Position numbers and translations under genes: made by a program
In this document: piece after piece, positions 2,657 through 39,095 of the stretch
Layout: the number at the start of each line of letters is the position of its first letter
Position numbering within the stretch: position 1 is the stretch's first letter
The notes under the pieces: generated by a model
Database searches by the model: none
Seen by the model: only the letters and a program-made list of their open reading frames with translations
Told to the model about the DNA's origin: nothing
Source: Candidatus Woesearchaeota archaeon
GTDB taxonomy: Archaea; Nanobdellota; Nanobdellia; Woesearchaeales; GW2011-AR4
Assembly (NCBI GenBank): GCA_016181305.1
Contig: JACOZN010000004.1
Location: forward strand, 1 to 48,135
Direction: 5' to 3'
DNA: 48,135 nt

Positions 2657-2696
2657 ATGAAAAGCTTTAAATACTAGCATATAATATAACCATTTT

Positions 2697-2733
2697 GGGT
2701 TCTCAGTCTCCTGTTCTGCCGTGATTGAGCGGC
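2697..2733 (-). repeat. Degenerate copy of the tRNA 5' half (D-arm and anticodon)
   Basis: GGGTTCTCAGTCTCCTGTTCTGCCGTGATTGAGCGG aligns with GAGTTCTCAGTCCCCCGCTCCTCCGGATTGAGCGA at about 2615-2649. Confidence 0.65.
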
Positions 2734-2867
2734 TTTTATTTTTATTTAATAAGTGTGAGCACTTGCCCTTTAAATATTTCAGCCAAGAATGTTCAGTGCT
2801 TGTAGAGTATATATTTTGTAAAATAGGAATCGTAATTTGATAGTTGAAAGGTTGTTTGAGATTATTT

Positions 2868-4081
2868 TTAAAATCCAACCCCCTGAAAAATCACCTGATA
2901 AAGCAGGTACCCGTTAAATCCCAATATAACAATTCCAAATATAACAGCAAATATTGTTGTTATTTTTTTATTGACTAATTCTTTCATTATGCCTTTGTTT
3001 GATGTATAAAAAATCAATGGTATCAAAGGCAGTGGAATCAAGAGAAAACGGCGATTGTAACGGGTATAACATTAATGAATCTTGTTATCAGCCTTCTGAC
3101 CCACAAGCTTATCCTGAAGCCCGTCAAGCCGTCCATTACAGACTGCCCAGCCAGAGTCCCTGTCACCGAAGAGGATATGCCTGCAGAAAGCAGCGCCAAT
3201 GCAAAAACAATTGCTGCAAATTTGCCAAACAAAGGTATCAAAGTAGTATACGCCTGGTCAAGGGTTGCAACATTCGCCACTTGGTAAAAAGCAGCCGCTG
3301 ACATTATTATTATTGCAGCATTGATGAATCCGGCAATTGTAAGCGAAACAACATTGTCTATCAGATGATATTTCAAAATCCTGGATTTGCTGCCAAAATT
3401 GTTGCCAATAATCTTGTTTTTGATTAGCCATGAATGCACGAACAATGCATGAGGCATCACTGTTGCCCCTATAATGCCGACAGCAATCAAGGCGCTTTGG
3501 CTTGTTAATATAGGCTTTACAGAATGCACCAAAATAGATGAAACATCAGGCTTTGTGATAAACAGCTCATAAACATATCCCAAGCCGATTATTGAAACAA
3601 ACAGGACAAAAGACTGCTCCAGAGTCCTGAATCTTTTTTGTGTAAGCAGCAATATGAGCAATACATCAGCAACTGCGATATAAGTGCCAAAAAGCAACGG
3701 AATCCCGAAAAGAAGATTTAATGCAACAACAATTCCGAGAAACTCCGCCAAGTCAGTTGCCAAAATTGCAATTTCTGCCAGCATCCAGTAAGAAAGCACA
3801 AGCCATTTGCTTTTGAGCTTCTCCTTAACCAGTTCCGGCAAAGAATAGCCTGCAATCCCAAGCTTGCCTGAAAGATACTGGAAAAGCATTGCCATGCCTG
3901 AAGCAAGCCAAACAACCCAAAGCAAGTCATAGTTAAAAGATGCCCCTCCGGCAATGTCAGTTCCCCAGTTTCCGGGATCCATGTATGCAACGCTCACAAT
4001 CAGCCCAGAGCCCATGAATGCAAGCAGCTTCCTGTCTGAAAATATCCTAAAATAATTGAAAAACTTTTGAAAAGCTGCCAT
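2868..4081 (-). pseudogene. mntH: Nramp/MntH Mn2+/Fe2+ transporter, frameshifted near 3040
   Basis: AYMDPGNWGTDI and IGATVMPHALFVHS motifs. The ORF stops at 3038, but the C-terminal helices (IPLPLIPLIFYTSNKGIMKELVN...FNGYLLYQ) continue in another frame to 2868. About one TM segment is missing at the junction. Confidence 0.8.
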
Positions 4082-15395: not shown

Positions 15396-16136
15396 ATGTA
15401 CAAAAAAATAATATCGCTGGCGCCGAGCAACACAGAAATTCTTTATGGATTGAAAGCAGATGGCAATTTAGTTGCCGTCACAAGATACTGCGATTTTCCC
15501 GATGAGGCAAGAAAAAAGCCAAGAATAGGGGGCTGGCTGGATATAAGTGATGAATTGATTAAGAGCTACAACCCTGATTTGCTGCTGGCTTCCACATTCG
15601 TGCAAAACAAAATCACTGATAAGTATAGGAAAAAGACAACGCTAAAAGGCGTTTTTGATTCAATAGAAAAAATCGGAAAATTAGTCGGCAAAGAAAAAGA
15701 GGCATTGCATTTGATTCAGTCAATGAAAAATAAATTCAATGAAATACAATATAAAATAAAAAATATAAAAACAAAGCCAAGGGTTTATATTGAGGAATGG
15801 CACAAGCCGCCTACAGTTTCAGGCAACTGGGTGCCAACTCTTGTGAATATGGCTGGCGGCGATTATAGCTTGATAAAGGCAGGAGTGCACAGCAGGGCTG
15901 TTTCAACAGAGCAGATTCAGAAGTATGATCCTGGAATAATCATTGTTTCAATCTGCGGCATGGCTGACAAAGTCCCAAAAGAGTGTGTTACAAAAAGGGA
16001 AGGCTGGAAGAATTTAAGCGCTGTAAAGAATGGCAAAGTTTATGTTTTTGATGATTCGTGGCTCAACCGCCCTGGGCCAAGATTAGTTGTTGGATTGGAA
16101 AAATTAGCGAGAGTGATTCATCCTGAGTGTTTCTAG
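15396..16136 (+). CDS. Cobalamin/iron-siderophore periplasmic-binding protein (BtuF-like), no signal peptide seen
   Basis: IISLAPSNTEIL, VTRYCDFP, LSAVKNGKVY and RPGPRL. Confidence 0.82.
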   Translation: MYKKIISLAPSNTEILYGLKADGNLVAVTRYCDFPDEARKKPRIGGWLDISDELIKSYNPDLLLASTFVQNKITDKYRKKTTLKGVFDSIEKIGKLVGKEKEALHLIQSMKNKFNEIQYKIKNIKTKPRVYIEEWHKPPTVSGNWVPTLVNMAGGDYSLIKAGVHSRAVSTEQIQKYDPGIIIVSICGMADKVPKECVTKREGWKNLSAVKNGKVYVFDDSWLNRPGPRLVVGLEKLARVIHPECF

Positions 16137-16861
16137 GCTGGTTTTTCAGCCATTTTGTGCATTCCAAGGGAATAGCCGGTTTCCTGCATTATCCTGTATG
16201 TGTTGCTTACAAGCTTGCCAAGCACACTTGGCGCTGCAACGGAATAGGGTGTTTTGTCTTTTGGCTCTGTTTTTTCATCACCTACTATGAATTTCTTGAA
16301 TACCCAAGCCTGAAGCGCAAGCGCTGGAATCTGGGCTAGCGTAGGCAAAAATGTGGTTAAATAAGTCGGAACTGAAAGTATGGCCATAGCCAATTTATTG
16401 ATTTTTTTGTATTTGTCCCAAAAATTTTCAATTAGCAGCTTTTTTCTCTCTATGACATTTTCTGTCAGCATGTAGTATGCATTTGCTGCCAACTGCCATG
16501 CTGGAATCAGTGCAGCCCTTGCGTATGGATTCAGGGCCCCTATAGGCTCAAAGGTATATTTTGCAAATATTGAGAACAGCGTGCCGATAAGGGACTTTCT
16601 CGCTGCAGAGCCTGAACTTCTGTCATTGCCGCCAAAATATAGCCCAGCTGATGTTGCAGTTGCTCCGAAGCCGCCCATTCCATTAAAATTTCCTATGCCT
16701 CTGTCAGCAGCCAAAGGAAGCCCTATTGCAGCGCCCATATTGGCTACCTTTTTCACTCCGCCGATGATTTCTTCCAGAGTGCCTCCCGATGCTTCTGCTT
16801 TTTTCTGCACGCTTGCAGGTTGGGCGGTTGGATTGATTTTATCGCCTATATCTTCAGCCAT
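16133..16861 (-). CDS. Hypothetical membrane protein C, with an Mpv17/PMP22-like C-terminal half
   Basis: Start at MAEDIG (16861), overlapping the RHH stop. Gly/Ala-rich hydrophobic helices; tail GYSLGMHKMAEKPA. Confidence 0.6.
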   Translation of the reverse strand: MAEDIGDKINPTAQPASVQKKAEASGGTLEEIIGGVKKVANMGAAIGLPLAADRGIGNFNGMGGFGATATSAGLYFGGNDRSSGSAARKSLIGTLFSIFAKYTFEPIGALNPYARAALIPAWQLAANAYYMLTENVIERKKLLIENFWDKYKKINKLAMAILSVPTYLTTFLPTLAQIPALALQAWVFKKFIVGDEKTEPKDKTPYSVAAPSVLGKLVSNTYRIMQETGYSLGMHKMAEKPA

Positions 16862-17044
16862 TTTCTTCCTCAAGCAGTTTTTTGACTGCAAACTCTACAA
16901 CGTGGCTTTTGTTCCTGAATCTGCCGCTTTCAATAGTTTTCAGAATATCAAAAACCACTTTCTCGTCGATTGTTATGCTGAGTTTGTGTTTCATTTTGAC
17001 TATGCCGGCTTTTCAGCCATTTTGTGCATTCCAAGGGAATAGCC
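16143..17044. repeat. Identical 35-bp direct repeat pair (16143-16177 and 17010-17044)
   Basis: TTTTCAGCCATTTTGTGCATTCCAAGGGAATAGCC occurs twice. Confidence 0.9.
16854..16994 (-). CDS. Ribbon-helix-helix (CopG/MetJ-like) regulator, 46 aa, absent from the ORF track
   Basis: MKHKLSITIDEKVVFDILKTIESGRFRNKSHVVEFAVKKLLEEENG. Confidence 0.85.
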   Translation of the reverse strand: MKHKLSITIDEKVVFDILKTIESGRFRNKSHVVEFAVKKLLEEENG

Positions 17045-17967
17045 TGTGTTCTGCACAATTTTGTACAAGCCGCTCAGTAGTTTTGTTGGAGCAGTGGCTG
17101 CAGCTTTTACGTAAGGAACAGGGTTCATTGCCTTGAAAAGGTTCTTTAGGCTGGCTCCTTCGCTTTTTGGCCCTACAAGCCTGAACAAGAAAGTCATCAA
17201 AGAGCCGTAAGCCAGCTGCGCGGCTATTCCAAACTGGTATAGATACAGGACATTAAATGCGCTGAAAGGCAAAACATATTTCCATACCCTTTTCATTGTA
17301 GGCCAGTAATCGTTCTTGAATTTTGTGTACAAGCCTTTAAAGCTGAAATTCTGCACAATATGATTAAGCCCGGTGTACAAGCCTACAAATGCTGCCTGCC
17401 CAATAGCAAGCGCTCCGACAGCTGCAGCTGCGCCGGGTATTGCGCCCGCATAATTAGTTGCATACTGCCTTGCAACCTCTATGTATTTGAAAAGAGCTTC
17501 AAGCGGGGGCATGATTGCTGTTCCGACAAAAGATTCCTTTGAAGCCTTTACATTTGCTTTCAGGTCAATGGGCTTTTTTGCCATAATGTCATCAACCCTT
17601 GCTCCCAATGACAAGGGATAGGCGTTAATCATTGCATTTGTCCTTGCCTCTCCGGAAAACATGAACGGGAATGCAATTTCAGCTGCAACTGCCCCTACAT
17701 TTTTGGCAGCATAAATTGACTCGTCTATGACGCGCTCCAATGTTCCTTTCTCTTCTTTCTTCTCCTGCTGCGGGGCATTCTTTGCTGCCTGTTCCTGTTC
17801 TCTTAGTTTATGAAAATCGCGGAGCTCTGATTGTATGTCCTCAGCCATTTTGCACCTCAGTGTGGGTTTGTTGGGAAGTGGGCAGGCGTATGCCACTCGC
17901 CTGTGGCGAGTTTTCCTCAAGCAGTTTTTTGACTGCAAACTCTACAACGTGGCTTTTGTTCCTGAAT
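16866..17967. repeat. Identical 55-bp direct repeat pair (16866-16920 and 17913-17967)
   Basis: TTCCTCAAGCAGTTTTTTGACTGCAAACTCTACAACGTGGCTTTTGTTCCTGAAT occurs twice and encodes the 3' part of both RHH genes. Confidence 0.9.
17000..17848 (-). CDS. Hypothetical membrane protein B, with an Mpv17/PMP22-like C-terminal half
   Basis: Start at MAEDIQ (17848). KFKNDYWPTMKRVWKYVLPFSAFN resembles the Mpv17/PMP22 motif. Same tail as protein C. Confidence 0.65.
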   Translation of the reverse strand: MAEDIQSELRDFHKLREQEQAAKNAPQQEKKEEKGTLERVIDESIYAAKNVGAVAAEIAFPFMFSGEARTNAMINAYPLSLGARVDDIMAKKPIDLKANVKASKESFVGTAIMPPLEALFKYIEVARQYATNYAGAIPGAAAAVGALAIGQAAFVGLYTGLNHIVQNFSFKGLYTKFKNDYWPTMKRVWKYVLPFSAFNVLYLYQFGIAAQLAYGSLMTFLFRLVGPKSEGASLKNLFKAMNPVPYVKAAATAPTKLLSGLYKIVQNTGYSLGMHKMAEKPA

Positions 17968-18041
17968 TTTCCTGAAGAAAGAGCCTTGGCTATCTCAGCA
18001 ACCACTTCCTCATCCAGAGTTACGCTCAGCTTTGATTTCAT
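17841..18041 (-). CDS. Ribbon-helix-helix regulator, paralog of 16854-16994, extended by an inserted sequence
   Basis: MKSKLSVTLDEEVVAEIAKALSSGKFRNKSHVVEFAVKKLLEE. Confidence 0.85.
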   Translation of the reverse strand: MKSKLSVTLDEEVVAEIAKALSSGKFRNKSHVVEFAVKKLLEENSPQASGIRLPTSQQTHTEVQNG

Positions 18042-18553
18042 GTTGCATAAGACGGCTGCGCCATCTTCCTCCTGTAGCCAAGCGTAGAAGCTATGTAGCC
18101 AAATCCTGTGATTAGAGATTCTACTGCGTATGGAAGAATGAAAGCCAATGGCCCTGTCAATAAGCCTGTGCCAAGCGCCAATGCTGTAACAGCTCCAGCC
18201 AGCGGATAAGTAATTAAGTAACTTCCAAGATGCCTTACTCCAAGATTGAAGCCATCTTTGACAAAGCTTATTTTGCCCTTTAAGCCTTTGTACTTTTCCT
18301 TGTTGAAAGAATACAAAGAAGCTGCAAAACCAAGTTGGTCGCCAATAAAATTAGAAGCTATTCCCAAGCCAAACAAACCAAGATTGGAACTTACAAGATT
18401 TCTGCCAAAAGGAACGTAATTAGATATAATTTCAGGATAACTAAAACCGCCATAAACTCCGGCAGCTGTAGCTGCAAGTCCAACACCTTGCCCTATAGCT
18501 ACAGATTCATTATACCCTTTCAGCTTTTTTTCTAGCCCGCCTTCTTCTGCCAT
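18038..18553 (-). CDS. Hypothetical Gly/Ala-rich membrane protein A
   Basis: Start at MAEEGG (18553). Four hydrophobic segments; its stop overlaps the RHH start. Confidence 0.65.
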   Translation of the reverse strand: MAEEGGLEKKLKGYNESVAIGQGVGLAATAAGVYGGFSYPEIISNYVPFGRNLVSSNLGLFGLGIASNFIGDQLGFAASLYSFNKEKYKGLKGKISFVKDGFNLGVRHLGSYLITYPLAGAVTALALGTGLLTGPLAFILPYAVESLITGFGYIASTLGYRRKMAQPSYAT

Positions 18554-18574
18554 GCTGTACCCCAATATTGTAAG

Positions 18575-18601
18575 TACTACTAAGTAGTATAAAATACTAC
18601 T
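18575..18601. promoter_or_regulatory. Triple TACTACT/AGTAGTA inverted-repeat operator
   Basis: TACTACT-A-AGTAGTA and AGTAGTAT-AAA-ATACTACT overlap, just downstream of the minus-strand TATA box TTTATAAA (near 18606-18613). Confidence 0.65.
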
Positions 18602-18687
18602 ACTGTTTATAAATCTTTCTATTTGTTATTATTTTAAAGTGGTTACAGAATTTTATAGGACAAAACCTGTTTATACCAAAAAATATA

Positions 18688-18837
18688 TATACCAATTAGT
18701 ATAATCATTTAGAAACGTAAACCTTAAATATAACTTCTATACAGAAAGGTATATTGATTTAAAAAATATATACCAAAAAGAATAAAAACAAAAATCAAAA
18801 CATTTTTATATTATAAGTATATATGCCAATTGGTATA
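18688..18837. promoter_or_regulatory. Two 16-bp palindromes near consensus TATACCAATTGGTATA, plus half-sites
   Basis: TATACCAATTAGTATA at 18688-18703, TATGCCAATTGGTATA at 18822-18837, half-sites TATACCAA at 18672 and 18769. Confidence 0.7.
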
Positions 18838-18849
18838 AGAGGAATTTAG

Positions 18850-19995
18850 TTGGCTGGAAAAGAGGCTTTTGTACGGAGAGATTACTACCTGAATTTGCTA
18901 GATAAAAGTACGGATTCTTTCAAAAAGGGCTCTGCAAAAAATATTGCTTTGCTCGGCGCGAGGAAATCCGGCAAAACATCAATTCTAAAAGAGCACCTCA
19001 AAAACGCAAAGGATGTTGTTGCTGTCTACATTGACTTGGGAAAAATAAGCCTTAACCCCGAAAACTTCTCAGTCGAGTTCATTGGAAATGTAATCTTTCA
19101 TTGCCTTAAAAAGCCGCTGAGGGAATATAAAAAATTCTTATTGCTGGAAAATATTGTCAGATTTGAAGACGAATTAAAAAGCAAAAATGCGTTTTCTTTG
19201 GTAAAAAATGTTGAGAATGAATTATTAAAGATTAAGCCGAATCAAAAGCTGCTTGTTGAAAGCGCTTTCAGATTTGCCGAAGCATGGGGGAAGGAAGCAA
19301 ACAGGAAATTTTTGATTGCCTTGGACAATTTTGAAAATCTGCTGGACTTGAATAATTTCTCACAGATTAAAGATGTCATTTCAATCATTGACTTTGAAGC
19401 TCGGAATGTAAGCTATATCGCGGCAAGCTCTGCAGTCAGGCAGATATTGGCTTTGAAGAAATTTGAGTGCTATGAGATAAAAAATCTTGAAAAGAATGAG
19501 GCAGCGGAACTGGTAAAATCCATAACAGGCAAGGCAGAGCAAAAAACAGTTGATGAAATCTTTGCATTAAGCAACGGGCACCCACTCGTTACAATATCAA
19601 TTTCAAAAAAATACAACGAAACAAAAGATGCTAAAAAGGCATTTTTGATTGAATTATTGCAAAAAAACAACTCTGTTTATAATTATTGCAATGAGTCTCT
19701 AAATTATTATTATAACAGGGCACGTGGGCAAACCCTGCTTAAAACAATTCTAAAAACAATAGCAAATGAAGAGCTTCGCTTAAGTGAGATTGCAAAGAAA
19801 ATCTACAGGAGCGCTCCTGTCACAAAAAGCATCATTGAAAGGCTGATGGAAGTTGACGTGATTTACAAGAAAGACAACAAGTTCTATTTTGCTGATAATG
19901 TGTTGAGGCTTTGGCTTAAATTAACTTCGCAAGGCTATGAGTTTGATGAAATTCCTGACGATAAAATCCTTGATGAGGCTGCAAAGGAATTATGA
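18850..19995 (+). CDS. Archaeal-type AAA/STAND-like ATPase with C-terminal wHTH
   Basis: Walker A LLGARKSGKT, variant Walker B IALDNFE, SNGHP (GxP) motif and C-terminal HTH LRLSEIAKKI. Confidence 0.82.
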   Translation: MAGKEAFVRRDYYLNLLDKSTDSFKKGSAKNIALLGARKSGKTSILKEHLKNAKDVVAVYIDLGKISLNPENFSVEFIGNVIFHCLKKPLREYKKFLLLENIVRFEDELKSKNAFSLVKNVENELLKIKPNQKLLVESAFRFAEAWGKEANRKFLIALDNFENLLDLNNFSQIKDVISIIDFEARNVSYIAASSAVRQILALKKFECYEIKNLEKNEAAELVKSITGKAEQKTVDEIFALSNGHPLVTISISKKYNETKDAKKAFLIELLQKNNSVYNYCNESLNYYYNRARGQTLLKTILKTIANEELRLSEIAKKIYRSAPVTKSIIERLMEVDVIYKKDNKFYFADNVLRLWLKLTSQGYEFDEIPDDKILDEAAKEL

Positions 19996-21185
19996 AACTG
20001 AATAAAATGCTGTGGATTTTTGCATTGGTTTTGTTAGTTGTAATTCCGTCTGCTTTTGCGCTGCCTGCGTTTTTGAGAAATGTCTGGGTGATGCTGGGGG
20101 TAAATTCGCTTATAATATGGTTTATTCTCTTTGCGCTCCAAACCATGATTGTTCCAGAAAAATTAGAGAAAGAAAAGACAGTGCTGTTTATTATAACGCT
20201 TGTAGCGTCACTATTGATTTCATGGTTTTTGGTTGGCGGCGGAGGGTATATCTGGGAAGTTGGAAAGCTGGCTGGCTTCTTCAGCTTCAAGCTCATAGTC
20301 AACACGATAATAATCTCGCTTGTTGTTTATTTCGGGCTTGGGCTTGCCGGAGTAAAGCCCGGCACAAAGGAAGGGCAGATTGGGATTGCATTGCTGGCGA
20401 TAGGCATTGGGCTGTTGATAGCGTTTAATGTTGGCAATGAGTGGCTGTGGAAGCATCCTCGCGGGGAAGCACTTTATAATTATCTGCTTGGGCCTGAACA
20501 ACCAACAGGCAAAAAGGATAGCAAAGGAAATGATATTACAGAAGGAGGCATATTAGTGCCTCCAAGATTGATTGTATTCGGCATATCTGCCATGCTATTC
20601 GTATGGTTCTTTACAAGCTATCTAATGGAAAAAGCAGATCCAAGGCTGACTTGGGCAATTGCAATTATCCTTGCCGCAAATCTTGCAAGAAGGGGCAACA
20701 CGTATAATGCGGTAATTATGCTTGGAGAGATATTTGCAATATTGATCATAGCAAACCACATCGCTGTTGGAAAAGGCGCTGCTGGAAGCATCTTAGGATG
20801 GATAATAACAATAGTGCTTGTAGAAACTGTTTTTTGTGTTGTATTTGGCAACAGCGCTCTCTCACAATTGTTTAGTGGAATATTGAAAGCATTTAGTGAT
20901 ATGTGGTTTGTGGGTGGTATTTTTGGGAAAACGGCTGCCTACTTAAACAATATTTGCCCGCTTACAACTGCATTAGTAAGTGGTGATATAGATGATATTA
21001 AAGGTATAGTAAAGGTGATAGAAGCAGAGGCAGAGAAAGTAACAACTCCTACACCCACTATTAAAGGACCGTTTGGTATTACGATTGAACCACCTACTAA
21101 AAAGGAGGAACTTCCTGGGATTGGTAGTAGATCTCGTGGATGGTGGGATAGGACAAAAGAGCGTTGGAAGAAGGCAACAGAATGA
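19992..21185 (+). CDS. Multi-pass membrane protein with signal peptide and repeated two-helix TM units
   Basis: Signal-peptide-like N-terminus ending SAFA and about 9-10 hydrophobic segments. Confidence 0.7.
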   Translation: MKLNKMLWIFALVLLVVIPSAFALPAFLRNVWVMLGVNSLIIWFILFALQTMIVPEKLEKEKTVLFIITLVASLLISWFLVGGGGYIWEVGKLAGFFSFKLIVNTIIISLVVYFGLGLAGVKPGTKEGQIGIALLAIGIGLLIAFNVGNEWLWKHPRGEALYNYLLGPEQPTGKKDSKGNDITEGGILVPPRLIVFGISAMLFVWFFTSYLMEKADPRLTWAIAIILAANLARRGNTYNAVIMLGEIFAILIIANHIAVGKGAAGSILGWIITIVLVETVFCVVFGNSALSQLFSGILKAFSDMWFVGGIFGKTAAYLNNICPLTTALVSGDIDDIKGIVKVIEAEAEKVTTPTPTIKGPFGITIEPPTKKEELPGIGSRSRGWWDRTKERWKKATE

Positions 21186-23221
21186 TAAGAATACTAAGCA
21201 ATTTGTGGACTTGGATTAAGGGGCATAAAATCTGGGTTATAACTCTTATAATTCTAGGCTTTGTTTTTATTAGTGGATACACCCTAATAAAAATATTATT
21301 TTATTTCATAATACCCACCCTATTGGATTTTATATTCAATGTAGTCTTAGGCTATGCAGTAAACTTAGGGGATAACCTACCTGTTACTCCATGGCTTACT
21401 TTTATTGTTAACTCGCTCCTAGTCTTGGTAATGTTGTTTGGGCCATTGTGGCAGCGCCTAATAGTTTCATTTTTAGCATGGTGGTTTGGATATACTGGAA
21501 CCATATTTTTAATATTTTTATGGATAGTAAGATTTTTTATTAAAAGGGTACCTTTAGCAGGCAAACTTGTAGGTTATTTGGATTCTTTATTCAACACTTC
21601 GCGTCTGTTTGGATGGTGGTCAAAAAAACAAAAGCGCAAGACAACAATTTGGAAATCATTAAGGAAATACGGTTTGGGAATTATCTTCCGCGGGCTGAAA
21701 AAATCTCCTTTGCGTCCACTTGTGTGGCTAAGGCGGAATTGGACAATGAAAGACCCATACTTAGAGGGAGAGTTGCCATTCGCTTTTAAAGACTTAAGGG
21801 CAGAGCTAATGATACTTATGAACTACCAAACAAGGCTGCACACATTTTTTGGCAAGCGGGAAAAGGTCCAGCAGGCTATTTGGCAGGCTAATGCCATAGA
21901 ATCCTATTTTGACGCCGCCAATAAGACATACGACACTATGGCAAACTCCCTGGACAAGTATAGATTTGGCGGCTTAAGTATGACAGAAAAGAATTATGGC
22001 TGGTCAAACAATAGGGACCTAATAGCCTTTTTTTTCGAGCATCTTAAAAAAAATCTCGAATCTGACATAGATTTAAGAAGGCCTATAGCTGATAGTGAGA
22101 AAGCTAAAGAAATGCGTATTGGAGGGATAATATCAGACTTAAATGATAGATTAAATTTAATGTCTGGTGCATACGGGCAATTTGTTACAAACTGCAAAAG
22201 ATTTGGATTGATTCACAGGCTCAAAAGCATAAAAATGAGCATACTTGACTTGCTGGCTTTATATGGAGTATACAAGCATTACTACAGGTTTGCGAATGAA
22301 AATGCTTTATTTGAATACTGGCGATGTAAACCATCCAAAGGTGATGGTGTTACAAGAGATGCAATACCAACCGAGCGAATTGAGACTTGGGAAACAAAAC
22401 GTAATAATGTTGTCAATCGTGTCAAAAGGGAACTTCTTTTGGAGTTTATTGAAAAGTACAAAAGGGAACTAAAATATGACGAGGCAAAGACAACTTACAG
22501 CCCTGACAAAATTAAAGAACTTCAGAAAGAAATTTGGGAAAAAGCCCGGACTGAAGTTGGAAAAGAATATAAAAAGAGAATGCTTCCAATATATAAACTT
22601 GGCTTTGATCCTGATTCTCCTGGAAAGGCATTAAGGTACGAAGTTGACATAAGGGGTTTTCTGCTAGCAGATATACACAAGATTGAAATTGACTATAAAA
22701 ATTTGAAGTATATAAGGAGGGTAAAGATAGGAGATATAGATGATTTCCCAGGTGATACAAAAGACTTGGCTACATATTCTGCCATATACCCAAAAATTCT
22801 TTCAGAATGGGACTTCCATAACGAGGACTTAAGATTTGGCACTTATCACACAAACAGCAGGTCAGACATTGACTACACTAACGTAATGGAGAAACTAAAA
22901 ACTATAGATATGCTCAAGAATATAGGCAAAACACCTCCTGACAAGCAGAATAAGTACTTTGCATTTGATTTGGAGGCATTTAAAATATCTGGAAAATTTG
23001 TTTACTGGGGCAGGAGAAATTATTGGGATACATTTCCGGAACTAAAAAATCCTTACCCCATGCTGTCAACGGCAGGCTTATCAAGATTTATGACACAGCT
23101 TATAAAATTAAGAGTTGAGCAAAATGAGATTTATAATAAGTACCTTAGCTACTGGATATGGGATAGTGCAGGTCCAAAAGAAGATATGTTTACCACATTG
23201 CTGGCTGGAGAGAAAAAATGA
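21182..23221 (+). CDS. Large hypothetical protein: N-terminal TM helices plus a C-terminal domain shared with 24938-26713
   Basis: Long ORF with overlapping start and stop codons in an operon. Internal motifs are listed in the findings. Confidence 0.75.
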   Translation: MIRILSNLWTWIKGHKIWVITLIILGFVFISGYTLIKILFYFIIPTLLDFIFNVVLGYAVNLGDNLPVTPWLTFIVNSLLVLVMLFGPLWQRLIVSFLAWWFGYTGTIFLIFLWIVRFFIKRVPLAGKLVGYLDSLFNTSRLFGWWSKKQKRKTTIWKSLRKYGLGIIFRGLKKSPLRPLVWLRRNWTMKDPYLEGELPFAFKDLRAELMILMNYQTRLHTFFGKREKVQQAIWQANAIESYFDAANKTYDTMANSLDKYRFGGLSMTEKNYGWSNNRDLIAFFFEHLKKNLESDIDLRRPIADSEKAKEMRIGGIISDLNDRLNLMSGAYGQFVTNCKRFGLIHRLKSIKMSILDLLALYGVYKHYYRFANENALFEYWRCKPSKGDGVTRDAIPTERIETWETKRNNVVNRVKRELLLEFIEKYKRELKYDEAKTTYSPDKIKELQKEIWEKARTEVGKEYKKRMLPIYKLGFDPDSPGKALRYEVDIRGFLLADIHKIEIDYKNLKYIRRVKIGDIDDFPGDTKDLATYSAIYPKILSEWDFHNEDLRFGTYHTNSRSDIDYTNVMEKLKTIDMLKNIGKTPPDKQNKYFAFDLEAFKISGKFVYWGRRNYWDTFPELKNPYPMLSTAGLSRFMTQLIKLRVEQNEIYNKYLSYWIWDSAGPKEDMFTTLLAGEKK

Positions 23222-24960
23222 CTAACGGATATACCAACGAATCGGATAACAAATTAATCTTAAAAAATCTGGAGGAGGCGGAAGCCATATTCAAGGAGTT
23301 ATTTGAAAAAAGGCTTGATGAAGTGGCAAAGCTCGATGCGAAAAGGATTGAGATTTCAAAGGCTATAAGCAATGACAAAGAATTTTATGCAAAAGACCCA
23401 AATTTGCTCCTAATAGGTTTGATTGAGAACACTTACAGGGAATCCAAAGGCAATTTCCTGTTGTTTTTAAGGAGCTTACGAATGAAAAGGGCATGGATTG
23501 AAAGACTCCAAGGAGAATTGCCACAAGATGTATTGAAGCAGCTGCAAAGAACCGAAGCAGAATTCGGGAATCGAGATACTTTTAGGATACTTATACAACT
23601 ATATCTCCACATTATACAGAATGCAGATAAAGATTACATTGTTGGGTTTATGAGAACCGAACCGCATCCACTAGAACTGCGAAGTGCAATAAGCTACATA
23701 AAAAACAAGACTTTAGCCAACCGCATAAGGGAAGCAATTTCTGCCCTTACAAAGGAGGAATTGGATTATTTGGTAAAATACCATAGGGAAATTACCTTAT
23801 GGAGAAGCAAGGAAGTGGTGACAGAAGACATCCCGTTCTTTGTTTTAAGAACAAGAATATTCATCGAGGGAGGAGAAAGAGGCTACTTAGGGTTATTTTC
23901 AATTTTCAAAGATGAAAAACTAAGACAAAAATTAGTGTCAAGCCCTGCGTTTTTGCGGCTTATGAGGCATAAGGAGCAAGCGGCGTTTTTGATGAAATTA
24001 AGAAATGATGTAATGTCTTATAAAACTGACCCAAAATGGGAAAAATTCCTTAAGTTTTATGATGATGTGGAAAAGATTGCAGATGAATTGAGAAATAAAT
24101 TCGGAAATCCTGAAGTTGATTATGGATTATTGGGCGCTATATATTCACATTTGGGCAAAAAGGAAATTGCATCTGAATTGTTTGAAAACAAGAGCAAATT
24201 CAGGCAGTTTCCTCAAAAATGGCTTGAATATTTCAACAATTTGCTGTGGCTTGTGAACTCAAAAGAAAACAAAAGAAAGCATGTTATAGAGCCGTTCATA
24301 AATGAAATGGACAGAATTTTTGGTGATAGGATACATGAATTAATAGTCATGACGTTGCCTGAGATTAGCCAGTTGAAAGATGCATTAACTCCATTGATAA
24401 AGCTGGAAAAAAACTCGTTTGATAAAATCATGGAAGAGACTGCAGATTCCAGAAAAAATGCAAGAAAAAGATTGCAGAAATTAAGGGAAAAGTTTGATGA
24501 TGCAAGCGACAGATGCATAGATGCATTAACAGATTTTGCCGAAGCAAAATATAGAATTGTTAATGTGGAAATAATGCAAGAAATCCTGTTAAGACTAAAA
24601 AATGCAAAAACTTATGCTCAAAATGAGGGGCAGTTTGGAAGGCATAGCCTTCAAGTAATAGGTGATGATTTAGAAAAGGCAGTGAGCAACCCAATTAAGG
24701 GTTTGACATTATTATATAACTTTGATAAGGCATCAAGAGCAACAATAAATGTTAGCTACAACTTGCGCTCGATAGGCAATATTTTTACGCGGAAGGAGAT
24801 TTTAGCAAAACTAGAAGAGTTGAATAGGTATATGGAAACTACATCGCGAACATACCACAAACTTGAAGGTTTAATAAATACAAATTTGCAATTTTTATTT
24901 GAGCCAAAATCAGAAGAGCAGTCAAAGGGTGAGGAATATGGCAAATCCAGAGCAGCCTGA
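23218..24960 (+). CDS. Large soluble, predicted all-helical hypothetical protein
   Basis: 580-aa ORF rich in K/E/L, with no family recognised. Confidence 0.72.
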   Translation: MTNGYTNESDNKLILKNLEEAEAIFKELFEKRLDEVAKLDAKRIEISKAISNDKEFYAKDPNLLLIGLIENTYRESKGNFLLFLRSLRMKRAWIERLQGELPQDVLKQLQRTEAEFGNRDTFRILIQLYLHIIQNADKDYIVGFMRTEPHPLELRSAISYIKNKTLANRIREAISALTKEELDYLVKYHREITLWRSKEVVTEDIPFFVLRTRIFIEGGERGYLGLFSIFKDEKLRQKLVSSPAFLRLMRHKEQAAFLMKLRNDVMSYKTDPKWEKFLKFYDDVEKIADELRNKFGNPEVDYGLLGAIYSHLGKKEIASELFENKSKFRQFPQKWLEYFNNLLWLVNSKENKRKHVIEPFINEMDRIFGDRIHELIVMTLPEISQLKDALTPLIKLEKNSFDKIMEETADSRKNARKRLQKLREKFDDASDRCIDALTDFAEAKYRIVNVEIMQEILLRLKNAKTYAQNEGQFGRHSLQVIGDDLEKAVSNPIKGLTLLYNFDKASRATINVSYNLRSIGNIFTRKEILAKLEELNRYMETTSRTYHKLEGLINTNLQFLFEPKSEEQSKGEEYGKSRAA

Positions 24961-26713
24961 GGCTGTAGGCCCCGGCAAATGGGGCAGAAGAATTAAAAAT
25001 ATTTTGATAACCGGGTTAAGGAAAACACTAGGCAAGCCTGTGAAAAAAGCTACAGGCTACGAATTTCAGTATGAAATGTATGAAGGGCAGGGCATCCAAG
25101 AGATACAGCCTGTAAGAATATTAAGGGATAAAAATCTCTTAAACATAATGCACAGCCGTTCAAGTTCTGCTATTGAAGTGGAAAACAACTGGGATTTTTT
25201 TGACAATGACAAGCCAAAAGGCAAGAGGCAGGAAATTGAAGATTTGTACGCAAATTCCATGATTTATCTCGACCCCGATACAAGTGCATTTGAATTTGAA
25301 ATGTACCAGAATGGGATTAATAAACCGCATGATATAGAAGAGATTAGGATTAGGAATGGAACATACCGATACCCTGTTCCTCCAAAAGTTAAAATTAGGT
25401 ATCCAATACCTGCTATGAAAAGGGATTGGGTGGTGACTATCAGCCCTTTTGGTTACAATAAAAGAGATGCTTATAAAGATGAATATCAAAAGGTAATTGA
25501 GAAAATTTGTGATGATGCTCAAGAAGACGCTTTAAGAAATGCTTCAGATGAAGAAAAAGAAGTGATAAAAAGCTGGATTGGGGGTATAAAACAGGCTTAT
25601 ACTGAAGTTATTCCTGACTTATTGTTAAGCTATTGTGGTTCTGGAGACGAAGAAACTACTGAACCTACATTACTTGGCACCTATGCACAAATAGAAAAAA
25701 AGCAGTATTCATTTGTTAAAAAGGCTGTGGAATCCAGCCTAAAAATAAAAGGTTATTATGCTACTCTTTCCCAAAGGCGCCAATTTTTAGAAAAGCAAAA
25801 TGTTATATATTACAATACTTTTAGAATTATACAGCCTGTTCTATATGGAACCAAGGATGAAAGTGCTGTCGTAAAAGATAGTCTTGAAAGCCATGGGTGG
25901 ATAACAAGACCGAATGAACTCGGTCCAGGTCTTGATGAATATGGTTATACATTGGAAGTTGGCTATGATGGCATTGTGCTCCTTGATAAGTTTAATCACG
26001 TAGCTGACCCAAGACATGTTCCAACCCAATTTGTTAAGGACATAGACCTTCTGGAATTAGTAAATTACATTAGTGTAAGGCATGATACTTTCAGGGATGA
26101 CACAAGAGACGGGCGTTTCCACGGAAAAACTCTGACCATTATGGATTATGTACAAGCCAACAATAAATCATTATGGGGATTATGGAAAACGAGGGATGAA
26201 AATGAAATAACAGACCAGTCAGAATTTATTATTGATCTTACAGCATCATGGATGGATTTTAAACAAACAAGAATAAAAATAAAACCTACAGACAAAAATC
26301 CAGCATTTGATTTAAGGGCTTTAAAGGAGGTTATAGGCGGAGAAGAAAAAGAAAAAGTGCCTGTTTGGAAACATATTGGAAGAAAGCACTATTACCAAGT
26401 GCCTGACGAAAGTTTTGCACTTATGGACGAAAATCCTGAATCGCATATGTCATCAAGGGGTGCTTCAATGTACGTAATAGAAAAAATAATCCGAGAAATG
26501 AGAAAATTTGATGACGTAATAAAAGTTTTGGATGGTATTGGGGAGCAGGGGCCCGGCTTTGATTACGGGCCTAGACCTTGGAAACAGCAGTGGGGAAAGG
26601 CTATGATACAGCATGTTTTTGACTGGAGGAGGGTATTGGCAGAAGTAAATGCACCCCTACCAATAGAATATAATGAAGAAGACTATAAAAAAATGTATGA
26701 CATACGCAAATAA
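24938..26713 (+). CDS. Large hypothetical protein, paralogous C-terminal domain to 21182-23221
   Basis: ATG at 24938 preceded by an SD-like GGGTGAGGA; shared motifs with the 21182 protein. Confidence 0.75.
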   Translation: MANPEQPEAVGPGKWGRRIKNILITGLRKTLGKPVKKATGYEFQYEMYEGQGIQEIQPVRILRDKNLLNIMHSRSSSAIEVENNWDFFDNDKPKGKRQEIEDLYANSMIYLDPDTSAFEFEMYQNGINKPHDIEEIRIRNGTYRYPVPPKVKIRYPIPAMKRDWVVTISPFGYNKRDAYKDEYQKVIEKICDDAQEDALRNASDEEKEVIKSWIGGIKQAYTEVIPDLLLSYCGSGDEETTEPTLLGTYAQIEKKQYSFVKKAVESSLKIKGYYATLSQRRQFLEKQNVIYYNTFRIIQPVLYGTKDESAVVKDSLESHGWITRPNELGPGLDEYGYTLEVGYDGIVLLDKFNHVADPRHVPTQFVKDIDLLELVNYISVRHDTFRDDTRDGRFHGKTLTIMDYVQANNKSLWGLWKTRDENEITDQSEFIIDLTASWMDFKQTRIKIKPTDKNPAFDLRALKEVIGGEEKEKVPVWKHIGRKHYYQVPDESFALMDENPESHMSSRGASMYVIEKIIREMRKFDDVIKVLDGIGEQGPGFDYGPRPWKQQWGKAMIQHVFDWRRVLAEVNAPLPIEYNEEDYKKMYDIRK

Positions 26714-26729
26714 AATCAATTTTTTACAT

Positions 26730-28205
26730 TCACCCCAAAAACCCCCTCACAAACCCAGCCCTTGCTATGTTCTCTGAAAGCTGCCTGTAGTCCCTTCTTT
26801 CAAAATCATCAAGTATTATGGAAGTTATTTTCCTGTGCTTTTCGTCAGCATCATAGTCAATCATTTTGGATGCGCTTCCGGCATTCTCGGCTATCTCCTT
26901 GGGGAATATCTTAAGATTGTCTTTATTCAGGTACTGCAGCGAGTCCCTTAAGTCATTGTCAAAATTGGCGTAAATGTCTTTTATGTAGTCTACATCATTT
27001 TCATTAAGCGCATTCAGGCCAAGAATCTCAGGAGGCAGCCCGTAGGAGTACAATGCAGCGCAGAATGTTATCGCTCTCGGCAATTTAAGCTCCCCTATGC
27101 TCCTTGAATACCCAAACAGTCCTATGTGCAGCTTTCTTTTCCTCCTTGACGGGACATAAGGAGACATGTCGTTTACAAGCTTTCCGATGAGCTTGACCTG
27201 CCTTTGATACCCTTTTGTCAGCTTTTCAATGATTGAAATGCATTTTTCCTCGTCAACGTCAACAGGCTTTGAGGGCTTTGAGTCGTTCAGAAACTTGACT
27301 GCGCCTGCAATATCCTTTATATTGTAATCGTACTTGAAAGCGGACTGCAATGTGAATGTATAAACGCTGGGGTAGCCCTGCACGCAGTTTTTCACGTTGG
27401 TTGGCTTGAAATTGCCCCTGAAAGGCGCTGAGCCGCACCCAAGAATCGGGAGTATGTCAACTGACATACTCTCCTGGAGATCCTGCAGCTTCTGGAATGA
27501 AACCTTGAGCATGAGCACAGTCGCAAGATTGCCGTAGTTAAGCGCAGGGTCGCTTCTTGCAAGCCACACCCTTTGGTAGCCCTCGACTTTCTCCTCCTTC
27601 AGGTAGCCCTCTACAATCCTGTCGGGGTTCAGTATCGTTTCCTTTGTCTCAATCAAAGGTATGATTCTCAGTGTCTCTGGCTGGAACTTGCCTATCCATT
27701 CCGCGATTGTCATGTCCTTTCCAAGCTGGCGGTGCTGCTTTCCCACAACGTGGTGCTTGTAGTACTCTGCAATCCTGGCAAGCTCCCTGTAGTCAGTAGT
27801 CATCGGCAGTGCAATCTCAAAAATGGGCGCAATGTCCTCATCGTAAAAAAGCCTTGCAGCATCAAAATTCCTCGGTATGCTTTCAAGCGTTTCAAGCAAA
27901 ATCTTTGCCTCACTTTTTTCAATGGAAGGATTTGGCACTCTCAGTGTTAGAAAAATGTCCTTTCCAAGCTTGTGCCTTGTAAAATAAGGCTCGTACTTGT
28001 TCAAAAGCTTCTTCACGACAAAATTGTCGACTTCCTTGCCTTCGCAGTCCCAAAGCTGCTCCCTTGAGTGTATGTGGGAAAAGGCGTAGAAAACCTCCTT
28101 TATCTCGTCTTCTCCGGCAAGCTCAGAGTTGTCCGAAAAAAAAGGCGCATGCACATTATCAGGGTGCTGTGTCGACATTGTCCTTGACACATTGTGATTT
28201 GCCAT
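26730..28205 (-). CDS. ppcA: Phosphoenolpyruvate carboxylase, archaeal type
   Basis: RTMSTQHPDN, WDCEGKE, RVWLARSDPALNYG, GCGSAPFRG and LPRAITF. Confidence 0.95.
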   Translation of the reverse strand: MANHNVSRTMSTQHPDNVHAPFFSDNSELAGEDEIKEVFYAFSHIHSREQLWDCEGKEVDNFVVKKLLNKYEPYFTRHKLGKDIFLTLRVPNPSIEKSEAKILLETLESIPRNFDAARLFYDEDIAPIFEIALPMTTDYRELARIAEYYKHHVVGKQHRQLGKDMTIAEWIGKFQPETLRIIPLIETKETILNPDRIVEGYLKEEKVEGYQRVWLARSDPALNYGNLATVLMLKVSFQKLQDLQESMSVDILPILGCGSAPFRGNFKPTNVKNCVQGYPSVYTFTLQSAFKYDYNIKDIAGAVKFLNDSKPSKPVDVDEEKCISIIEKLTKGYQRQVKLIGKLVNDMSPYVPSRRKRKLHIGLFGYSRSIGELKLPRAITFCAALYSYGLPPEILGLNALNENDVDYIKDIYANFDNDLRDSLQYLNKDNLKIFPKEIAENAGSASKMIDYDADEKHRKITSIILDDFERRDYRQLSENIARAGFVRGFLG

Positions 28206-36857: not shown

Positions 36858-39095
36858 ATGAAAAGAACCCATACCTGCTGCGAGCTGGCAGACAAGGATA
36901 TCAACAAGAAGGTTGCTTTGGCCGGGTGGTGCTCTACAAGAAGGGACCATGGGGGGGTCATTTTCATTGACCTGAGAGACAGGTACGGCATAACCCAGAT
37001 AGTTTTTGACCCAAGCCATGACATGCAAAGCCACAAAACCGCTGAAACTTTGAGAAGGGAGGATGTGGTTATAGTTGAAGGGCACGTAAGGAAAAGGCCC
37101 AAAGGCATGGAAAACGAAAGGCTTGTAACAGGAAATGTCGAAGTTCTTGTTGATAAAGTTCTGGGCATAAACAGGTCAGAAACCCCACCTATTGAGATTG
37201 ATGACAGGATTGAGGCTTCAGAGGAAATGAGGCTGAAATACAGGTACCTTGACTTGAGAAAGCCAAAGATGCAGAAGCAGCTTATATTCAGGCACCATCT
37301 TGCATCTGCAATAAGAGAATACCTGAATGAGCATGGCTTTATTGAGATTGAAACTCCAATGCTGATTAAGACAACTCCTGAAGGAGCCAGGGATTACCTT
37401 GTGCCCAGCAGGCTTCATCCCGGAAAGTTCTATTCATTGCCCCAATCCCCCCAGATTTACAAGCAGATTCTGATGATTGCAGGGTTTGATAAGTATTATC
37501 AGCTGGCAAGATGCCTGAGGGACGAAGACTTAAGGGCAGACAGGCAACCGGAGCACACACAGCTTGACTTGGAGATGTCATTTGTTGATGCTGAAGACAT
37601 ATTTCATCTTACAGAAGGCTTAATCAAGGAAGTTTTCAGGAAACTGCTTAACAGGGACATTAAGACTCCTTTCAGGAGGATTGATTATAATGATGCAATG
37701 GAAAAATACTGCACAGACAAGCCGGACATAAGGTTTGGTATGGAATGCTGCACTGTGACCGAAACAGTGAAAAACTCTGAATTCAAGGTTTTTCTGGATG
37801 TAATAAAAAAAGGCGGCATTGTAAAGGCATTGAATGCGGAAAATTGCGGGGAAAAGCTGAGCAGGAACCAGATTGACGAGCTGATAGAGTTTGCAAAGCA
37901 GAACGGCGCGCAGGGATTGGCGTGGATGAAAGTAGGGAAGAATAAAGCGCTTGAAAGCAACATCGTGAAGTTTTTCCCGGAAAATGAGCAAAAAAAATTG
38001 ATTGAAAAAACCAATGCAAAAATGGGGGATTTGCTGCTTTTTGCAGCAGACAACTCTAAAATTGTCAATGATGTGCTGTCAAAAATAAGGCTGAAGCTTG
38101 CAAGTTCATTGAATTTAATAAAAGAAGTAGATTTTGGCTTTTGTTTTGTAACAGACTTTCCGATGTTTGAATGGAATGAAGACGAGCAGAAATGGGACTT
38201 TGGGCATAACCCGTTTACCATGCCGAAAGAAGAATGCTGGGAATATCTTGAAAAAGAACCTTCCAAGGTTGTTTCTTACCAGTATGACTTTGTGATGAAC
38301 GGCTCTGAGCTTTTCTCAGGCTCTGTCCGAAACAATATCCCGGAATTGCAGATGCGGACCTTTAAAGTGACAGGAATGTCCGAGGCTGAAACAAAGGATA
38401 AGTTCGGGTTTTTGCTTGAGGCATATAAATACGGCGCTCCAAGGCACGCTGGCTTTGGATTGGGATTTGACAGGCTGGCTGCGCTGATGCAGGGCATACA
38501 TGACATAAGGGAAGTTATTGCTTTCCCGAAAAACAAGGCAGCAGAAAACCCAATGGACGGCTCTCCAAACGAGGCTTCTGAAAAGCAGCTGCAGGAACTG
38601 CACATTAAGCTGGACTTTGTAAAAGACACGAGAAATGTCGTGCTGGACAGGATAATTGATGCGCTGAACAAGGAGAAGATTGAATATGAAGTGCTGGAGC
38701 ACAAGCCAGTTTTCACAAGCAAGGAGGCTGCTGAAGTTCGCGGAACAAAGCCTGAGCAGGGCTGCAAGGCATTGATTTGCAAAACAGAGGAAGGCTTTAT
38801 ACAAGCAGTTGTGTCAGGGGCAAAAGAATTGGATATTGAGAAACTGCAAAAATTGACTTTGTTTAAAAAAATTGAGTTGGCAAATGCAAAGGAAGTAAGA
38901 AAAGTAACTGGCTGCAATATCGGAAGCGTTCCTCCATTCGGCAATTTGTTTGGCCTGAAGGCTTACTTTGACAAAAGCGTCGTGCAGAATGACATTGTCG
39001 CGTTCAATGCAGGCACTCACGCAAAAAGTATAAAGATGAAGGCAAAGGATTTGGTTAAGGTTGTGAATCCGGTTATGGGGGAGTTTGGGAAATGA
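36858..39095 (+). CDS. aspS: Bacterial-type non-discriminating aspartyl-tRNA synthetase fused to a C-terminal YbaK/ProX-like domain
   Basis: RRDHGGVIFIDLRD, YRYLDLR, SPQIYKQ, CLRDEDLRADRQPEHTQLD, GAD insert, GLGFDRL and FPK. Followed by HKPVFTSKEAA...KALI...GSVPPFG...FNAG. Confidence 0.93.
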   Translation: MKRTHTCCELADKDINKKVALAGWCSTRRDHGGVIFIDLRDRYGITQIVFDPSHDMQSHKTAETLRREDVVIVEGHVRKRPKGMENERLVTGNVEVLVDKVLGINRSETPPIEIDDRIEASEEMRLKYRYLDLRKPKMQKQLIFRHHLASAIREYLNEHGFIEIETPMLIKTTPEGARDYLVPSRLHPGKFYSLPQSPQIYKQILMIAGFDKYYQLARCLRDEDLRADRQPEHTQLDLEMSFVDAEDIFHLTEGLIKEVFRKLLNRDIKTPFRRIDYNDAMEKYCTDKPDIRFGMECCTVTETVKNSEFKVFLDVIKKGGIVKALNAENCGEKLSRNQIDELIEFAKQNGAQGLAWMKVGKNKALESNIVKFFPENEQKKLIEKTNAKMGDLLLFAADNSKIVNDVLSKIRLKLASSLNLIKEVDFGFCFVTDFPMFEWNEDEQKWDFGHNPFTMPKEECWEYLEKEPSKVVSYQYDFVMNGSELFSGSVRNNIPELQMRTFKVTGMSEAETKDKFGFLLEAYKYGAPRHAGFGLGFDRLAALMQGIHDIREVIAFPKNKAAENPMDGSPNEASEKQLQELHIKLDFVKDTRNVVLDRIIDALNKEKIEYEVLEHKPVFTSKEAAEVRGTKPEQGCKALICKTEEGFIQAVVSGAKELDIEKLQKLTLFKKIELANAKEVRKVTGCNIGSVPPFGNLFGLKAYFDKSVVQNDIVAFNAGTHAKSIKMKAKDLVKVVNPVMGEFGK

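Follow-up and report, generated by a model that had tools for sequence, protein, structure and literature searches.

What kind of system is encoded by five overlapping genes (g1 to g5), four of them specifying proteins of no recognisable family, in a 48,135-nucleotide stretch of the genome of a tiny Candidatus Woesearchaeota archaeon from groundwater (assembly GCA_016181305.1, contig JACOZN010000004.1, positions 1 to 48,135; hereafter, the window)? DPANN archaea are symbionts that are abundant and uncultivated, and for most of the genes specific to their lineages there is no explanation. Comparison of related loci shows that ~6 kb of this operon, from the middle of g2 to the g5 stop codon, is a cassette that, judging by the pattern of similarity between species, is exchanged by homologous recombination. 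We give even chances to the reading under which the operon is vertically inherited and self-regulated, encodes a membrane-anchored cytoplasmic complex, undergoes block replacement, and functions as an antiviral sensor/effector or in recognition.

The five open reading frames (ORFs) are co-oriented on the + strand between positions 18850 and 26713, and every gene-gene junction in the window is an overlap. The operon comprises the following features:

18850-19995, + strand: g1, 381 amino acids (aa); probable P-loop nucleoside triphosphatase (NTPase) of the Arch_ATPase/AAA_14 type, ending in a putative winged helix; conserved head gene, outside the cassette.
19992-21185, + strand: g2, 397 aa; polytopic membrane protein, with the first ~150 aa conserved and the remainder in the variable cassette.
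21182-23221, + strand: g3, 679 aa; four N-terminal transmembrane (TM) segments, then basic residues next to the membrane and a soluble part with a predicted cytoplasmic location.
22589-23131, + strand: C-terminal domain of g3; degenerate paralogue of the g5 core domain, as detected with hhalign.
23218-24960, + strand: g4, 580 aa; soluble, with no TM segment or known family; the most divergent gene.
24938-26713, + strand: g5, 591 aa; soluble; fold predicted with confidence, the model as a whole matching no known structure.
25805-26617, + strand: conserved C-terminal alpha/beta domain of g5; near-invariant residues across 143 family members.
20440-26713, + strand: replaceable hypervariable cassette, consisting of the C-terminal part of g2 together with g3, g4 and g5.

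The first three junctions are ATGA overlaps (g1/g2 at 19992-19995, g2/g3 at 21182-21185 and g3/g4 at 23218-23221), and g4 and g5 overlap by 23 nucleotides (nt), with the g5 ATG at 24938 preceded by GGTGAGG and the g4 stop ending at 24960. Read directly from the sequence, these junctions bear out the preliminary description of this DNA, in which the genes were treated as one translationally coupled unit. The g1 start is a TTG at 18850, with GAGG 8 nt upstream, and the N-termini of 17 orthologues agree with it; the g5 start at 24938 is also consistent with the orthologue N-termini. A jackhmmer search with the window proteins recovered the order g1-g2-g3-g4-g5 in 19 other loci, and the same architecture surrounds three much more distant family members, so that the arrangement is not a matter of chance. 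Conserved co-occurrence of these genes, the lack of which the preliminary description had named as grounds against its interpretation, was seen in every related locus examined. The operon is single-copy in the genome. As a general rule, the earlier picture of a five-gene operon does not hold: it is correct for the window, but 12 of the 22 related loci carry g2 and g3 fused into a single ORF of 813-1250 aa. The five-gene form is one of two natural architectures, with g2 and g3 either split or fused. A simple frameshift splitting g2 from g3 was considered and ruled out, given that the split and the fused forms each occur in several species and that the ATGA junction is clean.

The evidence of replacement comes from comparison with the closest species (G015). 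Between the two species, identity is 93% for the aspartyl-tRNA synthetase (AspRS), 90% for g1, 86% for proC and 88% for phosphoenolpyruvate (PEP) carboxylase, whereas g3, g4 and g5 are only 26-29% identical, in patches. Within g2, the first 150 aa are 88% identical (132/150); identity then drops to about 40% and, further on, no similarity is left. The DNA is 73-93% identical up to ~20440 and 61-64% identical up to ~20870, stays at the level of unrelated sequences to 26713, and returns to 93-97% identity from 6 nt past the g5 stop; blastn yields 85.7% over 18556-20440, nothing over 20825-26719 and 92.7% from 26719 on. The same cassette borders were found in two further species pairs, G008/G007 and G011/G013. 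Because an interior without detectable similarity lies between near-identical flanks, mutation since the species split is insufficient to account for the divergence, and the block has been replaced by recombination.

The distribution of the cassettes, which is at odds with the species tree and the g1 tree, likewise points to exchange by homologous recombination. One relative (G001) has an AspRS that is only 65% identical to that of the window, yet its g5 is 49% identical over the full length. In the g1 tree, the window and G015 are sisters with 100/99 support, and the approximately unbiased (AU) test on the g1 alignment rejects the monophyly of type-A carriers, which were defined by g5 similarity before tree building (p = 2.7e-7, delta lnL 97). 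Across 20 loci, we distinguished ~10 types of g5 and 12 types of g4, and the g4 and g5 types co-vary; the loci compared come from species representatives only, and the variation is that between species of a genus. The combination of the same locus, conserved flanks, a non-alignable interior and phylogenetic incongruence is that by which replacement islands are recognised.

Where, then, would the products of the cassette reside? We estimated topology from hydropathy and the positive-inside rule. In agreement with its description as a multi-pass membrane protein with a signal peptide, g2 has ~8-10 hydrophobic segments by hydropathy and a signal-peptide-like N-terminus; the hydrophilic loops between TM segments are short, 37 aa at most. 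Similarity to G015 collapses in the first long hydrophilic loop of g2, at 20440-20600 (residues ~150-190), and the length of this loop is variable (37 aa in the window vs ~70 aa in G015). The TM anchor attributed to g3 was recovered as four N-terminal TM segments, with 553 soluble residues behind them. The last TM segment gives way to a strongly basic stretch, with ~20 Lys/Arg vs 3 Asp/Glu in 75 residues, on the strength of which a cytoplasmic location is predicted for the soluble part of g3. The same prediction is made for g4 and g5, neither of which has a TM segment or a signal peptide, as fits the earlier characterisation of g5 as soluble. More than 1,700 of the ~2,000 residues encoded by the cassette are thus predicted to be cytoplasmic; because g4 and g5 carry no signal peptide and the soluble part of g3 follows the basic stretch, most of the protein mass would lie inside the cell and not at its surface. 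These predictions lend no support to the secretion, uptake or host-contact machine that the preliminary description had suggested.

Searches with g2 to g5 returned no match in Pfam, NCBIfam, PADLOC or PHROG, and when every member of the g4, full-length g5 and g5 C-terminal domain alignments was compared with Pfam, no recurrent family and no immunoglobulin (Ig) or toxin family emerged. The PDB profile search with g4, the mean column identity of which is 24%, gave coiled-coil and helical-bundle noise only (best E 1e-4); the helical nature ascribed to this protein is accordingly backed only indirectly, by weak profile matches to helical bundles. An ESM Atlas feature search with the soluble part of g3 and with g5 gave no usable match. 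That the last four proteins belong to no recognisable family, as had been stated from the sequence alone, therefore stands across Pfam, NCBIfam, PADLOC, PHROG, PDB and the ESM Atlas.

For g5, an AlphaFold2 model based on a 143-sequence alignment attained a predicted local distance difference test score (pLDDT) of 93.6 and a predicted template modelling score of 0.88; with 13 sequences, the model was poor (pLDDT 53). In the model, the N-terminal half consists of helices, including a long helical hairpin, plus a four-stranded sheet, and residues ~290-570 make up an alpha/beta domain. The Foldseek comparison proposed in the preliminary description was performed for g5, and the whole model matched nothing in PDB or BFVD at E<=0.001; against Atlas structures, its template modelling scores were at most 0.2. 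At most, the structural searches matched the helical hairpin, and PDB sequence-profile searches with g5 gave nothing. The statement that no fold is known applies to the whole g5 model, not to the C-terminal domain alone. Twenty g5 residues are at least 90% conserved across the 143 members, all of them in the C-terminal domain: D333, E340, R359, D383, R386, D387, D388, R390, D391, R393, H395, P455, D458, G481, Y485, Y486, R507, G508, D542 and G544. The motifs of this protein read D-x-x-R-D-D-x-R-D-G-R-x-H, N-P-A-F-D, G-R-x-Y-Y, S-T-R-G and D-Y-G, and the invariant motif is kept in all cassette types.

The C-terminal domain of g5 has a homologue in the C-terminal domain of g3 (hhalign 99.7%, E 2.2e-26). 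Profiles were needed to detect this relationship, the direct BLASTP comparison of g3 with g5 being not significant (E 0.098-0.17). In the g3 copy, the charges of the RDD, DGR and STRG motifs are mostly lost; in g5, the Asp/Arg/His motif is near-invariant. The combination of an intact and a decayed domain copy is common for pseudo-symmetric heterodimers. Complex prediction for g5 with the g3 C-terminal domain gave an interface score (ipSAE) of 0.53 (runs of 0.53, 0.58 and 0.17), against 0.00 at best for three controls; between runs, agreement extends to at least 19% of contacts, and the partner pLDDT is at least 56 (custom alignments). The mark for complex prediction is reached by 58 of 80 solved complexes and by 2 of 110 mismatched pairs, and values of ipSAE <=0.60 occur in only 7 of the 80 solved complexes and in both passing mismatched pairs. 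The prediction thus lends weak support to a contact between g5 and the C-terminal domain of g3. Multimer modelling had been suggested for all four proteins; it was run for this pair only, with the outcome just given.

Unlike the other four, g1 can be placed, if loosely. It contains the Walker A motif GARKSGKT (G-x4-GKT) at residue 36 and a Walker B region, ALDNFE, in which Asp is followed by Asn in place of the usual Glu, with a Glu two residues on; D159, N160 and E162 are invariant in 18 orthologues. The window protein scores 20.9 bits against AAA_14 (PF13173; cut-off 27), below the Pfam gathering threshold, and matches AAA_16 and DUF815 weakly; ATPase_2 (PF01637) is not listed for it. Among the orthologues, AAA_14 is matched by 18/18 (best 5.6e-7) and ATPase_2 by 11/18 at E<=0.01 (best 3.2e-6). 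Weak similarity to NB-ARC or NACHT is seen in single orthologues. The winged-helix matches, at residues 288-348, are weak as well (HTH_45, E 0.034; HTH_Cmi2_C, E 0.024) and recur in 4 and 8 of the 18 orthologues, respectively. The PDB sequence-profile search gave P-loop noise only, with no relative. On these matches, g1 is probably a divergent P-loop protein of the Arch_ATPase/AAA_14 type with a putative winged helix, in line with its first assignment as a P-loop ATPase with a winged helix-turn-helix. Across the genus, g1 sequences share 63-90% identity (75% as the mean per column); g1 would remain conserved because it lies outside the variable block. The conserved putative operator upstream and the D-N instead of D-E in Walker B favour a role of g1 as regulator or switch over one as motor.

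The putative operator is a 16-bp palindrome, TATACC-N4-GGTATA, present in 2-5 copies within 230 nt upstream of g1 in 21/21 loci, the distant ones included, and matched once elsewhere in the roughly 340 kb searched. Every locus has a copy close upstream of g1, at 1 to 65 nt and in most cases at 18 to 40 nt. The copies in the window, none of which is assigned to a strand, are as follows:

18688-18703: distal putative operator palindrome TATACCAATTAGTATA, 162 nt upstream of the g1 start, with one mismatch vs TATACCAATTGGTATA.
18761-18785: third, half-site-like copy of the operator repeat, TATACCAAAAAGAATA, of direct-repeat family D1, 84% to the reference copy.
18822-18837: proximal putative operator palindrome TATGCCAATTGGTATA, 28 nt upstream of the g1 start.

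The operon is probably self-regulated, and g1, as an Arch_ATPase/STAND-like NTPase, would most likely be the nucleotide-dependent switch or repressor that acts on the TATACC-N4-GGTATA palindromes.

The source genome is 1.07 Mb in size and 78% complete, and the relatives that bear the operon are labelled Candidatus Woesearchaeota, Nanoarchaeota or Nanoarchaeia, in keeping with the DPANN-type archaeon that had been suggested as the source. Relatives of g5 were detected in 19 of the 24 sampled genomes of the genus and relatives of g1 likewise in 19, with both in 17, many of these genomes being incomplete; one other family of the order also carries relatives of both. The g5 domain is found in 9 of 401 sampled genomes of the phylum, in four families. 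A motif scan for this domain across 185,579 species representatives identified 45 loci, all in Woesearchaeota, Nanoarchaeota, Nanoarchaeia or Methanosarcinales-titled bins or in entries titled merely 'archaeon', and the same scan found no relative in IMG/VR. An exhaustive profile search of 1.84 billion representative proteins brought the family to 194 members. The family, with 45 species, was found only in Woesearchaeota/Nanoarchaeia and, here, in a few families of Woesearchaeales; the operon is chromosomal and is best read as vertically inherited. Many third-party annotation (TPA) bins (L033, L034, L038, L041, L042 and others) are titled 'uncultured Methanosarcinales archaeon' though they share contigs and the GTDB genus with Candidatus Woesearchaeota metagenome-assembled genomes, and this title is probably a mislabel or placeholder. 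Literature searches found no description of the operon.

The chromosomal place of the operon is constant, between an array of Mpv17-like and ribbon-helix-helix (RHH) genes and, usually, proC-proA-proB, and homologues of the genes up2 and up3 are located upstream of g1 in most loci. In the window, the array is the following feature:

16133-18565, - strand: divergent array of Mpv17/PMP22-like membrane genes with small RHH genes; constant neighbour that has the operator-bearing intergenic region in common with the operon.

In this array, the Mpv17/PMP22-like genes alternate with the small RHH genes, and their copy number ranges from 1 to 4 across related loci. On the other side, some relatives have HEPN/MNT, VapBC, AbiEii-like and AAA_14-DUF4143 genes wedged between the operon and proC-proA-proB, and in two relatives an integrase lies ~7 kb downstream of the operon. 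Because such toxin-antitoxin (TA) and defence genes accumulate beside the operon, its junctions behave as an insertion hot spot for small modules. Individual cases include HEPN/nucleotidyltransferase genes, VapBC pairs and AAA_14-DUF4143 genes at 12210-16780 in L016, at 2662-3758 and 13578-14586 in L032, and at 923-1542 in L030. In the window, an archaeal-type PEP carboxylase gene (PF14010, E 2.8e-179; 26730-28205, - strand) lies between g5 and proC; this gene occupies the position only in the window and G015, and other relatives have TA/defence genes there or proC directly. The window and G015 differ by an indel of ~130 nt near the 3' end of this gene (26830-26960). Farther downstream, the window encodes a 745-aa AspRS (36858-39095, + strand) with a C-terminal extension of ~150 aa. 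The genus and G033 have full-length matches to it; for most of the order's other families, the match is confined to residues 1-590, and G027 has a separate match to the extension immediately downstream of that to the AspRS, a pattern suggestive of gene fusion or fission.

Taken together, these results can be arranged into a model of how the operon might work. Under this model, the polytopic module formed by g2 and the TM segments of g3 would tether the soluble part of g3 to the cytoplasmic side of the membrane, where this part would associate with g4 and g5. The working site would be carried by g5, in its Asp/Arg/His-rich alpha/beta domain, and the decayed domain in g3 would probably pair with the g5 copy. 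The diversification of the cassette would be driven by conflict or recognition; in the version that we prefer, the operon would encode an antiviral sensor/effector module, the intracellular parts of which co-evolve with viral proteins, and recognition of host or partner cells is a close second. The HEPN/MNT, VapBC, AbiEii-like and AAA_14-DUF4143 genes beside the operon in relatives provide a context of conflict. We infer, in short, a membrane-anchored cytoplasmic complex with g5 as its functional core, g1 as its regulator and conflict as the force behind its diversification. A bolder version, under which the operon represents a hitherto unknown class of system for archaeal immunity or self/non-self recognition, built as a membrane-anchored heteromer with the C-terminal domain of g5 as an effector of a new enzyme fold, g3 as its pseudo-enzyme partner, the cassettes as exchangeable specificity modules under frequency-dependent selection and the STAND-like NTPase as an on/off device, we regard as tentative and rather improbable.

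Several observations weigh against the antiviral or recognition model. No operon protein matches PADLOC-DB 2.0 at E<0.001 (the best values are E 0.005 for g1 against mad8 and E 0.62 for g4; g2, g3 and g5 have no match), and no toxin, nuclease or protease domain was recognised in these proteins. That almost all genomes of the genus carry the operon, and at one fixed place, is unusual for defence and fits housekeeping. The g2 loops and the g3 TM segments may be surface-exposed, which leaves room for receptor variation, and the divergently encoded RHH proteins could bind the palindromes, equally plausibly with g1. The formation of a complex is deduced only from translational coupling, the co-variation of types and the weak structural prediction. 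Finally, the C-terminal domain of g5 is probably catalytic or ligand-binding, judging by its conserved residues, and the catalytic reading is again one that we infer.

The alternative that survives best is that the operon encodes a lineage-specific housekeeping membrane machine, involved in envelope or lipid handling, division or uptake of host-derived compounds, which is weakly constrained and evolves fast, with recombination being incidental. The core-like distribution of g1 and g5 in the genus, the fixed locus beside metabolic genes, the conserved operator and the retention of an invariant functional motif in all cassette types are all as expected of such a machine, and neither PADLOC nor PHROG reveals a defence or mobile-element domain. 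However, DNA at the level of unrelated sequences between flanks that are 86-97% identical is beyond the reach of point mutation, and the AU test rejects the co-inheritance of the cassette with g1. Furthermore, ~10 deeply diverged types within one genus represent a pattern of balancing or diversifying selection, as described for replacement islands (Lopez-Perez et al. 2014, PMC4033161). The family was not found in most of the other families of Woesearchaeales, being missing from 392 of the 401 sampled genomes, so that it is not a general necessity. On balance, we consider the housekeeping explanation unlikely, albeit one to be taken seriously.

Alternatively, the cassette might be a replacement island for an exposed structure, with selection acting on outward loops of g2 and g3, such as a virus receptor or a host-attachment site, and with the C-terminal part of g3, g4 and g5 co-evolving. 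In favour of this, DPANN cells are found attached to hosts, the N-terminus of g2 resembles a signal peptide, and the left border of the cassette coincides with the start of the first long, length-variable hydrophilic loop of g2 (~residue 150). Moreover, replacement islands typically encode exposed structures (PMC4033161). Selection on the surface is difficult to reconcile with the predicted cytoplasmic location of most cassette-encoded residues and with inter-TM loops that are this short, and no Ig, adhesin or S-layer-like domains were detected. We judge this explanation unlikely too and rank it behind housekeeping. That the locus is an integrated virus, plasmid or other mobile element, or the target of a diversity-generating retroelement, is highly improbable and was rejected: its ORFan content, the TA genes nearby in relatives and the integrase downstream in two of them are outweighed by a locus and flanks that are the same in all species, GC content that is not distinct, the lack of PHROG matches and, in the motif scan for the g5 domain, of relatives in IMG/VR, the absence from the window of any integrase within or directly beside the operon, the lack of a reverse transcriptase (RVT_1) in the 78% complete genome, where template/variable repeat pairs were not searched for, and divergence that extends across the ~6 kb cassette instead of a short variable repeat.

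The preferred model, of an antiviral or recognition complex, would have implications beyond this locus. Replacement of a block between conserved flanks, against the species tree, is a signature that usually marks genes facing viruses or partner cells. Should the operon serve immunity or recognition, the few such systems described in archaea would be joined by one of a new kind, which would also help to approach virus-host or symbiont-host specificity in groundwater Woesearchaeota; should it serve housekeeping, a clade-specific membrane machine has been identified. In either case, conflict system or housekeeping, the domain of g5 is a candidate for a new fold with an enzymatic or ligand-binding role. 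The operon, for which we found no published description, is a tractable module: each of g2 to g5 stands for a new protein family, and for one of the four a fold without a match is predicted confidently; a conserved putative operator and a regulator-like NTPase accompany them.

Among known systems, the closest to g1, and to g1 only, are the Arch_ATPase/ATPase_2 (PF01637) and AAA_14 (PF13173) families. They resemble g1 in size (~380 aa), in the Walker A motif GxxxxGKT and in the order, as predicted for g1, of NTPase and winged helix; g1 differs in that all scores of the window protein fall below the Pfam cut-offs and in that its Walker B reads L-D-N-F-E vs the usual D-E.

Zorya and Kiwa are membrane-anchored bacterial defence systems in which a membrane component and large cytoplasmic proteins are encoded in one operon. 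This general layout, compared here through PADLOC only, is also that predicted for the operon in the window, which differs in having no PADLOC match, in being core-like instead of patchy, and in that its head gene encodes a conserved, regulator-like NTPase.

For the VARTIG module of Thermococcales and for polymorphic toxin systems, a role in conflict or self/non-self recognition has been proposed (Makarova et al. 2021, PMC8416519). Like VARTIG, the operon is an archaeal, lineage-restricted module with recombination-driven hypervariability. However, the two have no component in common: the operon has no Ig domains, toxin/immunity genes or variable downstream content, its gene order is fixed, and all its versions are homologous.

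The closest parallel to the cassette itself is found in the replacement flexible genomic islands of aquatic prokaryotes, which mostly encode exposed polysaccharide or other surface structures and vary between strains of one species (PMC4033161). The operon described here differs in encoding mostly cytoplasmic orphan proteins and in varying between species; it agrees with these islands in the constancy of the locus, in homologous function combined with deeply different versions, in the sharpness of the borders and in homologous recombination as the mode of exchange.

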